Positions 1,607-2,113 of a DNA stretch of 9,273 nt are shown here, piece by piece. The notes under the pieces are model-generated. The model saw only the letters and a program-made list of their open reading frames with translations. It was not told where the DNA came from and did no database searches. The translations under genes and the position numbers were made by a program. Within the stretch, counting starts at the first letter, position 1, and the number at the start of each line of letters is the position of its first letter. Source of the stretch: a virus (taxonomy: Duplodnaviria; Heunggongvirae; Uroviricota; Caudoviricetes); IMG/VR virus record IMGVR_UViG_2690316318_000024; one strand, written 5' to 3'.

Positions 1607-1774
1607 CCCCGCGCCAATCTAACGGGCAATAGTTTCAATTGATGGCCAGCACACACCTTCGTCATTACTGAAATCAGCCAGGCGGGCCATAATTGCCACG
1701 CTGGATAATTTCATGCCTGACGCTGCGCAACCATCCCATACATAGCCGGTTAATTTAGTGCTCATGACCGACCT

Positions 1775-2113
1775 CTATTTCCCTGAATTTACGACGAAAC
1801 TGTTCGAGCGGGCTGAAGCACTCATGCTCATAGCCTTCACGGAGGTAGATAACCCGTTGTGTTTCCGGCTCCCAACGAATGACTCTGACGGGCACTCCGT
1901 AGTGATCTTTGAACCAGCGGTTAACTTGTCGCAAAGGACTGTCTCCTTCTGCCGGTTGAAATCACCCACAGCCCACTCAGCAAAGCTGTGGGTTACAATT
2001 TCCCTGTCACCTGGTACATTCACTGCATAGCAATACTCCACCTTCGCTTTTCCACCCGGTACAGGAAGCGCAATCAGTTGCGAGCGACGGTAGTGTGTTG
2101 TTAAACTGTTCAT
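1775..2113 (-). CDS. Hypothetical protein (112 aa as called); only the N-terminal ~64 codons look protein-like, and a second frame carries the protein-like 3' portion (see findings)
   Basis: ORF track 1775..2113. ATG overlaps the upstream TGA (ATGA), suggesting translational coupling. The C-terminal half of this frame is Ser-rich and low-complexity. Confidence 0.5.

Follow-up and report, generated by a model that had tools for sequence, protein, structure and literature searches.

Between the gene for a CII-like regulator, ymfL, and the gene for a replication initiator, the early operon of an e14-type lambdoid prophage of Escherichia coli seems to change its reading frame in the middle of a gene. 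The prophage lies in a stretch of 9,273 nucleotides (nt) assigned to the Caudoviricetes (IMG/VR record IMGVR_UViG_2690316318_000024), which we call the window and to which all positions refer unless stated otherwise. A 112-codon frame beginning with ATG (2113..1775) is protein-like in its first part and turns into a Ser-rich sequence of low complexity, and a 59-codon frame (1934..1755) reads as protein across its 3' part; both were located exactly where a first-pass annotation of this DNA had put them. That annotation offered two explanations, a frameshift that would be another sign of prophage decay, or a separate small gene starting at TTG 1934 behind AGGAG. Is the discontinuity a lesion, or are two genes written into the same DNA? 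We put the probability at about 0.8 that it is a conserved nested out-of-frame gene pair, ymfM and a gene of the DUF4222 family, and not a lesion, a reading that rests on sequence comparison. The components ymfM and DUF4222 are already known; the nested two-frame arrangement is what is new, and we found no description in the literature of this arrangement or of its consequence for the assignment of SfiC, a cell division block of e14. The features of the pair are the following.

1775..2113, minus strand: ymfM (b1148; the legacy 112-residue open reading frame), ATG 2113-2111, stop codon TAG 1777-1775
1940..2113, minus strand: N-terminal domain of ymfM (codons 1-58), the conserved and probably folded part
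1778..1939, minus strand: C-terminal tail of ymfM (codons 59-112), overprinted on DUF4222 in the +1 frame of DUF4222
1755..1934, minus strand: gene for a small DUF4222 protein of 59 residues, TTG start 1934-1932, nested out of frame in ymfM
1943..1948, minus strand: Shine-Dalgarno sequence AAGGAG of DUF4222, 8 nt before the TTG, encoding part of ..QKE.. in the ymfM frame
2124..2127, minus strand: Shine-Dalgarno sequence GGAG of ymfM, 10 nt before the ymfM ATG and within the last ymfL codons

The two-frame arrangement in the window and its relatives

The inner frame encodes a DUF4222 protein. It matches the Pfam family PF13973 with E = 8.6e-19 (67.3 bits against a gathering threshold of 27) over profile positions 3-52 of 53, and the protein WP_001250269.1 has the same ends, which bears out the suggestion of a separate small gene at TTG 1934. 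The start itself holds up, since the initiation codon stands at one conserved position, as TTG in the E. coli/Shigella lineage, as GTG in two divergent groups and as ATG in most genera, and a purine-rich GGAG, GAGG or AAGG block precedes it in the 20 aligned loci described below. Between the window and 18 relatives, the ratio of non-synonymous to synonymous differences per site (pN/pS) in this frame is 0.06-0.35 at a pS of 0.60-0.89, so that synonymous sites are near saturation and four-fold sites only ~30-45% identical between lineages. As judged from these substitution patterns, the DUF4222 frame is the strongly constrained reading of this DNA and is under strong purifying selection.

The enclosing frame is ymfM. 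Its product matches the PHROGs family phrog_1170 (E = 2.9e-70 over residues 1-112), is 96% identical to the commonest cluster of 112-residue YmfM proteins (P0003), and is one of a set of 92 homologous YmfM protein clusters that are mostly 112-117 residues long. The 112-residue frame has no match to a Pfam family and NCBIfam holds no family for YmfM or the DUF4222 protein, while PHROGs lists full-length YmfM (phrog_1170) and the N-terminal domain alone (phrog_20047) as separate families and DUF4222 as phrog_1343, all three labelled as of unknown function.

Homologous loci were retrieved via the DUF4222 protein alone, a choice that keeps the sample independent of the state of the other frame, by one scan of one genome per species and three scans of viral contigs. 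In 20 e14-type genome loci (L088-L107) from Escherichia, Shigella, Atlantibacter, Citrobacter, Buttiauxella, Enterobacter, Raoultella, Pseudescherichia, Leclercia and Silvania, a stop codon lies in the DUF4222 frame 0-39 codons upstream of its start, while the ymfM (+1) frame is open for 109-129 codons, begins with MNSL... and ends about 20 nt before the DUF4222 stop. Two phage loci (L004 and L006) are likewise closed upstream in the DUF4222 frame and open in the ymfM frame, which spans 109-138 codons across all 22 loci. With YmfM as the query, the same arrangement was recovered in phages SfII and SfIV, several Escherichia phages, about 20 Klebsiella phages and Pantoea phage AH07. The pooled set retrieved via DUF4222 holds 97 loci with an upstream open reading frame (ORF) continuous with the +1 frame, corresponding to 72 distinct DUF4222 sequences, and a premature stop codon in the ymfM frame occurs in none of the 72.

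Had the discontinuity arisen by frameshift, an ancestral gene of ~118 codons comprising the N-terminal domain and DUF4222 would have been broken by a 1-nt indel near 1935-1960. The prophage does have decay lesions, such as a nonsense codon in the initiator gene (1621-1619), the two protein-like parts abut, and a few database proteins (P0030, P0052, P0059, P0065 and P0090) join them in frame. These rare fusions, however, have a different junction in each case, stem mostly from read-level assemblies and look like sporadic indels or errors. The two-frame arrangement, on the other hand, is present in all 72 unique fused loci across many genera and in active phages including SfII, SfIV and Klebsiella phages, and the DUF4222 frame has a conserved start, with a Shine-Dalgarno sequence of its own, and a stop 0-39 codons before it. 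The continuous protein of ~120 residues that the first-pass annotation proposed to look for was not found: none of the 72 unique fused loci and 15 full-length phage matches has both parts in one frame. Nor does the window have an indel near 1920-1960 relative to its relatives; in a megablast search with 701 nt of the region, the closest matches (H1-H9) align in a single piece over the full 701 nt at 97.9-99.7% identity. We therefore consider a lesion very improbable. The homologues that the first-pass annotation had pictured as speaking against a lesion would keep the 112-residue frame with its Ser-rich tail and lack the second ORF; the former is kept everywhere, and so is the latter. Since the 112-residue frame is kept in homologues together with its tail, the tail is not junk left by a lesion, but an overprinted extension of ymfM.

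A programmed -1 ribosomal frameshift, by which ribosomes translating ymfM would slip into the DUF4222 frame and make a fusion of the N-terminal domain with DUF4222, would fit the -1 position of the DUF4222 frame relative to ymfM and the Shine-Dalgarno-like AAGGAG just upstream, which could act as a stimulator as in dnaX. The window, however, holds no X XXY YYZ heptamer and only scattered, non-conserved ones occur elsewhere; in three loci (L099, L107 and L120) the DUF4222 frame is closed 0-1 codon before the start, so that a productive shift has no space; the DUF4222 N-terminus keeps a conserved start codon; and such a shift would not account for the zero frame of ymfM staying open downstream. 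This explanation, too, has very little probability in our estimate. As a nested gene, DUF4222 has a conserved start, a Shine-Dalgarno sequence and a coding signature of its own.

Constraint on ymfM and the openness of its tail

The first ~60 residues of YmfM are conserved and the last ~46 are rich in Ser, Thr and Ala. In 19 of 19 loci the ymfM start codon (17 ATG, 2 GTG) overlaps the ymfL stop, the junction GGAGAAACTAACGC-ATG/GTG is conserved in these 19, and a GGAG Shine-Dalgarno sequence lies upstream. The N-terminal domain falls into three diverged sequence types, and within each type pN/pS over codons 1-58 is 0.34-0.55 in the ymfM frame against 0.9-1.6 in the other two frames. A control on this comparison was needed since the first 13 ymfM codons also hold the putative promoter of an antisense RNA:

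2111..2226, plus strand: OOP-like antisense small RNA ECS003, facing the 3' end of ymfL and with a 5' end that is the complement of the ymfM ATG

The promoter, TTGCGA-18-TAAACT (plus strand, ~2075-2104), is located inside ymfM codons 2-13 and its boxes are conserved in all three N-domain types. When it is excluded and only codons 18 to -6 are counted, pN/pS is 0.39-0.60 in the ymfM frame and ~1 in the other frames. The N-terminal domain also occurs as a stand-alone ORF: of 65 residues before rha in Citrobacter phage phiNP, of 78 residues in Entomohabitans, ending 11 nt past the initiator ATG, and of 76 residues in a Salmonella prophage. Taken together, the frame-specific constraint and the stand-alone ORFs argue that ymfM is a real gene whose conserved unit is its N-terminal ~60 residues. 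An AlphaFold2 model built from a 30-sequence alignment gives this domain a predicted local distance difference test score (pLDDT) of 57-74 and a beta-beta-beta-alpha-alpha order. Clusters of shorter YmfM proteins (88, 100 and 68 residues) look like contig ends or junctions with foreign sequence and not like nonsense alleles.

Three further observations concern the N-terminal domain and its neighbour. A Yersinia-like group (L221-L260 and L115) has a type-2 N-domain ORF of ~55 residues whose TGA overlaps the DUF4222 ATG (ATGA), with no overlapping tail. In Entomohabitans teleogrylli (L122; KQ947383.1, 1501-1737) DUF4222 is deleted except for its last ~17 codons (...FRERFKRVDR). Exhaustive HMMER searches with the N-terminal domain returned weak multi-repeat matches to large proteins with Listeria-Bacteroides repeats (Flg_new) or DUF7507, with a motif of the type H-x-F-x-x-W; a kinship of the domain (1940-2113, residues ~14-52) to these families was rejected at a profile-profile probability of 0.6%.

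The Ser-rich sequence of low complexity after the protein-like part, as the first-pass annotation had described it, is the tail that overlaps DUF4222. In the tail frame pN/pS is 1.4-9, that is, there is no amino acid constraint on the overlapped part, and the tail residues follow the synonymous changes of DUF4222, whose third codon position is the second codon position of the tail. AlphaFold2 gives residues 67-112 a pLDDT below 50 and no secondary structure. The Ser/Thr-rich tail is thus predicted to be disordered and is not conserved as a sequence, yet it is kept free of stop codons.

How far this openness exceeds expectation was gauged by resampling synonymous codons of DUF4222. With local codon usage, only 3-14% of trials per sequence leave the +1 frame open to the observed extent. 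For 15 mutually divergent lineages (pS >=0.55), taken as a greedy set of mutually divergent sequences after single-linkage at four-fold sites had merged all into one cluster, the joint probability of an open frame in every one is 10^-16.9 with the codon-usage null and 10^-5.3 under a conservative null that permutes each gene's own synonymous codons. At four columns of the DUF4222 alignment (4, 18, 28 and 43) a Val or Leu codon with a final purine would put TAA, TAG or TGA into the ymfM frame, and only codons ending in T or C are found there; purine-ending codons are present at all 14 safe four-fold columns, for example GTG at column 14 and CTG at column 31 (Fisher test on the column counts, ~4e-4). 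Where DUF4222 is linked to rha and not to ymfM, the +1 frame meets a stop after 0-3 codons (8 loci; 13 unique sequences in a later scan; phage phiNP).

A number of observations weigh against this reading. Constraint on the N-terminal domain is, on the pN/pS values, only moderate, and the near-invariant residues N2 S3 L4 and S11 Q12 L13 coincide with the -10 and -35 boxes of the putative ECS003 promoter, so that part of the apparent protein conservation at the YmfM N-terminus is dual constraint. For the tail, the per-sequence probability of openness under the most conservative null is only 0.07-1.0. Some loci that have no ymfM frame running into DUF4222 (L108, L219-type loci, L220, L250 and the Yersinia-like group) are likewise open in the +1 frame, at a per-sequence chance of 0.05-0.2 with codon usage as the null; the null models may therefore miss a cause of part of the openness. 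The long tail is, moreover, dispensable in some lineages, namely the Yersinia-like group and the 65-78-residue versions of phiNP and Entomohabitans.

Should DUF4222 be the sole gene, the ymfM ORF would not be made into a functional protein and the 175 nt between ymfL and DUF4222 would be a regulatory spacer with an antisense promoter. Such a view can point to the NCBI annotation pipeline, which omits ymfM, to the missing Pfam and NCBIfam families, to the coincidence of the most conserved N-terminal residues with the promoter boxes, to a pN/pS above 1 in the tail frame and to the weak AlphaFold2 model. It is countered by the constraint on codons 18 to -6, which lies outside the promoter and is specific to the ymfM frame, and by the start codon that overlaps the ymfL stop behind GGAG in every locus compared; it leaves unexplained the stop-free 109-138 codons over 15 divergent lineages and the persistence of the N-terminal domain as an ORF of its own where DUF4222 is absent or displaced. 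A pBAD24 clone with the ymfM ATG behind the ribosome-binding site of the vector gives strong filamentation, which also speaks against it, with the limit that the clone contains DUF4222 as well. We hold this explanation to be improbable.

A milder version accepts ymfM as real and takes the tail for functionless read-through, its openness being a by-product of the sequence and codon usage of DUF4222 and not of selection. The unconstrained tail sequence, its absence in several lineages, the per-sequence probabilities of the within-gene permutation and the open +1 frames in lineages without fused ymfM are all in its favour, as is the preference for C at the third codon position, which differs little from that of the rha-linked controls (0.65 against 0.57). 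It has to face the joint probability, which is low even under the conservative null, the confinement of at-risk Val and Leu codons to pyrimidine endings while GTG and CTG are used freely at safe sites of the same genes, the closed +1 frames of rha-linked DUF4222 genes, and the position of the ymfM stop, fixed beside the initiator ATG in 70 of 72 sequences despite differences in initiator type or a DUF4222 that is 41 nt longer. Read-through without function seems unlikely to us, if slightly less so than DUF4222 as the only gene; the preferred reading remains a nested pair with a tail kept open.

Some features of the tail frame were noted in their own right. In L108 (Providencia) and L219, with which L222 and L223 are grouped, the +1 frame, open along the entire DUF4222 gene as in L220 and L250, opens with MKT close to where DUF4222 begins; L206 has another upstream ORF, 165 codons long, that continues across DUF4222 in the frame equivalent to ymfM; and in the Yersinia-like group the DUF4222 +1 frame is open in nearly all members and reads as a hydrophobic peptide. 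Open +1 frames without ymfM could represent a separate overlapping peptide or a compositional effect. The ymfM tails show a weak and non-specific bias against hydrophobic residues, being less hydrophobic than stop-free resampled tails in 12 of 12 lineages; this is suggestive of selection on tail composition, but we do not claim it, the bias for C over T at third positions being nearly equal in the rha-linked controls.

A known nested out-of-frame pair for comparison is Rz/Rz1 of phage lambda, in which both products are constrained and act together in lysis. ymfM/DUF4222 shares with it an inner gene on the same strand and in another frame, a ribosome-binding site of that gene's own and the conservation of both genes; it differs in that the overlapped part of ymfM lacks sequence constraint beyond the absence of stop codons, and its products are without a demonstrated functional link.

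The ymfM stop, a proposed translational coupling and the antisense RNA

Why should a tail of no particular sequence be kept open? The position of its stop offers a clue. In the window, TAG 1777-1775 lies within TAGAGG, the Shine-Dalgarno sequence of the initiator gene, 9 nt before its ATG (1765-1763), and the DUF4222 stop TAA (1757-1755) lies 8 nt past that ATG, giving an overlap of 11 nt with the initiator gene; that the second frame overlaps the initiator start had been noticed in the first-pass annotation. The start region of the initiator is therefore where both overlapping ORFs terminate. Among the 72 unique sequences, 70 have the ymfM-frame stop no more than 12 nt from the initiator ATG, and the junctions in other lineages read TAAAGGA..ATG, TAGCCAATG or TAGCGCATG. 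The stop holds its place despite an initiator of a different type or a 70-residue DUF4222 running 41 nt into the initiator gene.

A DUF4222 variant of 70-72 residues with the extra C-terminus ...HEPVNAIPADSDKP was seen in L095, L099, L100, L102, L107, L120, L197, L198, L204 and L205. It reaches 41 nt into an initiator of a different type (MSLLMPSRP...), and the ymfM-frame stop stays just before the ATG of that gene.

The ATGA junction of ymfL and ymfM, together with a stop beside the initiator ATG, is the signature of a translationally coupled chain ymfL-ymfM-initiator. Ribosomes that end ymfL at TGA would restart at the overlapping ATG and translate ymfM, whose product would consist of the conserved N-terminal domain of ~60 residues and a disordered Ser/Thr-rich tail of ~50. 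The 59-residue DUF4222 protein would come from other ribosomes, with an independent start at AAGGAG-N8-TTG and in the -1/+2 frame relative to ymfM. Those in the ymfM frame would carry on to the initiator start, and a premature stop would uncouple the initiator from upstream translation. We propose, tentatively and at somewhat less than even odds, that the tail is kept open mainly for this coupling and not for a sequence-specific job of the tail peptide. The proposal fits the unconstrained tail sequence, the predicted disorder and the fixed stop position, and it also fits the ATGA-coupled alternative of the Yersinia-like group, in which DUF4222 would be a link of the chain. Against it stands that ribosomes in the DUF4222 frame likewise terminate at the initiator start and might provide the coupling on their own.

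The antisense RNA places the locus beside another lambda system. ECS003 was the most abundant cis-antisense small RNA candidate in a 2011 survey of E. coli by Shinhara et al. and is ~70 nt long on Northern blots (PMC3175480). The sequence given there (supplementary file 4 of PMC3175480) is identical to the window at 116 of 116 positions (2111-2226), and a GC hairpin followed by a U-rich tract can be folded at ~2152-2192. Rfam has no family for ECS003, a scan of the whole window at gathering thresholds giving no match, and a simple promoter and terminator scan of 1700-2500 yielded nothing useful.

By position, ECS003, which overlaps the CII-like gene at its 3' end, corresponds to lambda OOP RNA. 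As in cII-OOP-O of lambda, a CII-like gene stands upstream of the replication initiator and an antisense RNA of ~70-80 nt covers its 3' end. In lambda, cII and O have no genes between them, whereas in the window ymfM and DUF4222 stand between the CII-like gene and the initiator, and the putative antisense promoter lies in the first codons of ymfM.

Neighbouring genes, annotation and the SfiC assignment

The pair belongs to an early operon of the rightward type on the minus strand, ymfT(cro)-ymfL(cII-like)-ymfM-initiator, which is followed by a PerC-like gene. Its other members in the window are these.

2690-2938, minus strand: cro-like gene (ymfT)
2110..2667, minus strand: ymfL, CII-like regulator, GTG start as in annotations by the NCBI pipeline, Pfam Phage_CP76 with E = 2.2e-13
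824..1765, minus strand: replication-initiator-like gene with an HTH_36 N-terminus, start ATG 1765, a pseudogene in the window

ymfL is located at the equivalent relative position in relatives annotated by the NCBI pipeline, and its TGA stop overlaps the ymfM ATG as ATGA. In every lambdoid DUF4222 locus checked for its downstream gene an initiator follows immediately, also where DUF4222 stands behind rha. The initiator of the window is interrupted by a CAG-to-TAG change at 1621-1619 (codon 49) relative to the intact 323-residue gene of strain 1297KP (L001); this strain is 99.7% identical over the 701-nt query, and the nonsense codon is a lesion private to the lineage of the window. The region is 98.4% identical in DNA to the K-12 prophage e14. 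By megablast, 2,685 of 5,426 complete E. coli genomes match the 701-nt region, and 1,909 carry at least 80% of it.

Each annotation tradition displays only half of the locus. The MG1655 reference (NC_000913.3, 1203822-1204160) has the 339-nt frame as ymfM b1148, 'cell division inhibitor YmfM', and no gene in the second frame. The NCBI pipeline has the 59-residue ORF with its TTG start as 'DUF4222 domain-containing protein' (WP_001250269.1) with exactly the ends given here and leaves ymfM out; this applies to another K-12 record (NZ_CP010439.1, 1945682-1945861), to O103:H2 and to strain 1297KP. Two records of K-12 are thus in conflict, one showing ymfM only and the other DUF4222 only. The records of Klebsiella phage ST101-KPC2phi6.3 (L004) and Escherichia phage vB_EcoS-733R5 (L005), both at 1635-1922 on the minus strand, have neither gene annotated and carry in their place a 95-residue antisense shadow ORF as 'hypothetical protein'; its equivalent in the window is a 90-residue ORF on the plus strand (1758-2030).

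As to its structure, the DUF4222 protein models as a small SH3/Tudor-like beta-barrel with a Tudor/KOW-like fold, and searches of the PDB and BFVD with this model returned only generic small barrels. A faint likeness of its C-terminus to RelE/ParE toxins, raised in the first-pass annotation, found no support: no superfamily match was obtained by sequence or by fold, toxin identity was rejected, and what the proteins share is to be small, basic and prophage-borne. The only characterised DUF4222 protein that we found in the literature is RgdR (ECs1581) from O-island 51 of enterohaemorrhagic E. coli, a pleiotropic regulatory co-factor which raises expression of LEE1 and the type III secretion system, lowers motility and binds DNA weakly and non-specifically (PMC3378721; PMC10877973). 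Both proteins are small and prophage-borne members of DUF4222. RgdR, however, has 99 residues, sits in a P4-like element and needs RGD at residues 20-22 for activation of the secretion system (PMC3378721); set against this description, the protein of the window has 59 residues, RWE at 20-22 and no RGD anywhere.

The nested pair bears directly on a known phenotype. Early genes of e14 are repressed in lysogens. SfiC was assigned to YmfM in 2020-21, after 35 years. According to a preprint (10.1101/2020.11.19.390815), this SOS-associated, LexA-independent division block of e14 is encoded by ymfM; the ymfM ORF in pBAD24 produced filaments without Z rings, independently of SulA, SlmA and MinC, and deletion of ymfM shortened the filaments induced by recA441 in a sulA background. 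The gene of K-12 e14 is the same as that of the window and holds the same position between ymfL and an initiator, which is a fusion remnant in K-12 and nearly full length with a nonsense codon in the window. The preprint states that 'the open reading frame' was cloned and mentions no nested ORF, truncation or frame-specific mutant (10.1101/2020.11.19.390815), and earlier library clones held ymfL'-ymfM-ymfN' or a larger region. DUF4222 is included in pBAD-ymfM, in library clone D1-8E and in the UTI89 region, and it is removed in the ymfM deletion. Since all of these constructs, and the deletion, include DUF4222 with its own ribosome-binding site, this work does not separate YmfM from DUF4222 as SfiC. 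It may be, though this is less likely than not, that SfiC is encoded wholly or partly by the nested DUF4222 ORF, or that it needs both products.

The nested pair explains a recurrent annotation conflict in ~1,900 complete E. coli genomes and in many phages. For the biology of these phages, the ymfM tail is a clean example of an overprinted tail that is open without sequence constraint and that apparently serves to place a stop codon at the ribosome-binding site of the next gene. The K-12 reference lists ymfM under the curated name 'cell division inhibitor YmfM', and filaments are made with pBAD-ymfM as a tool; with a second and more strongly conserved gene in these 339 nt, the question of which protein is SfiC becomes explicit and testable, and if the answer were DUF4222, this would be the first function for that family in lambdoid phages.

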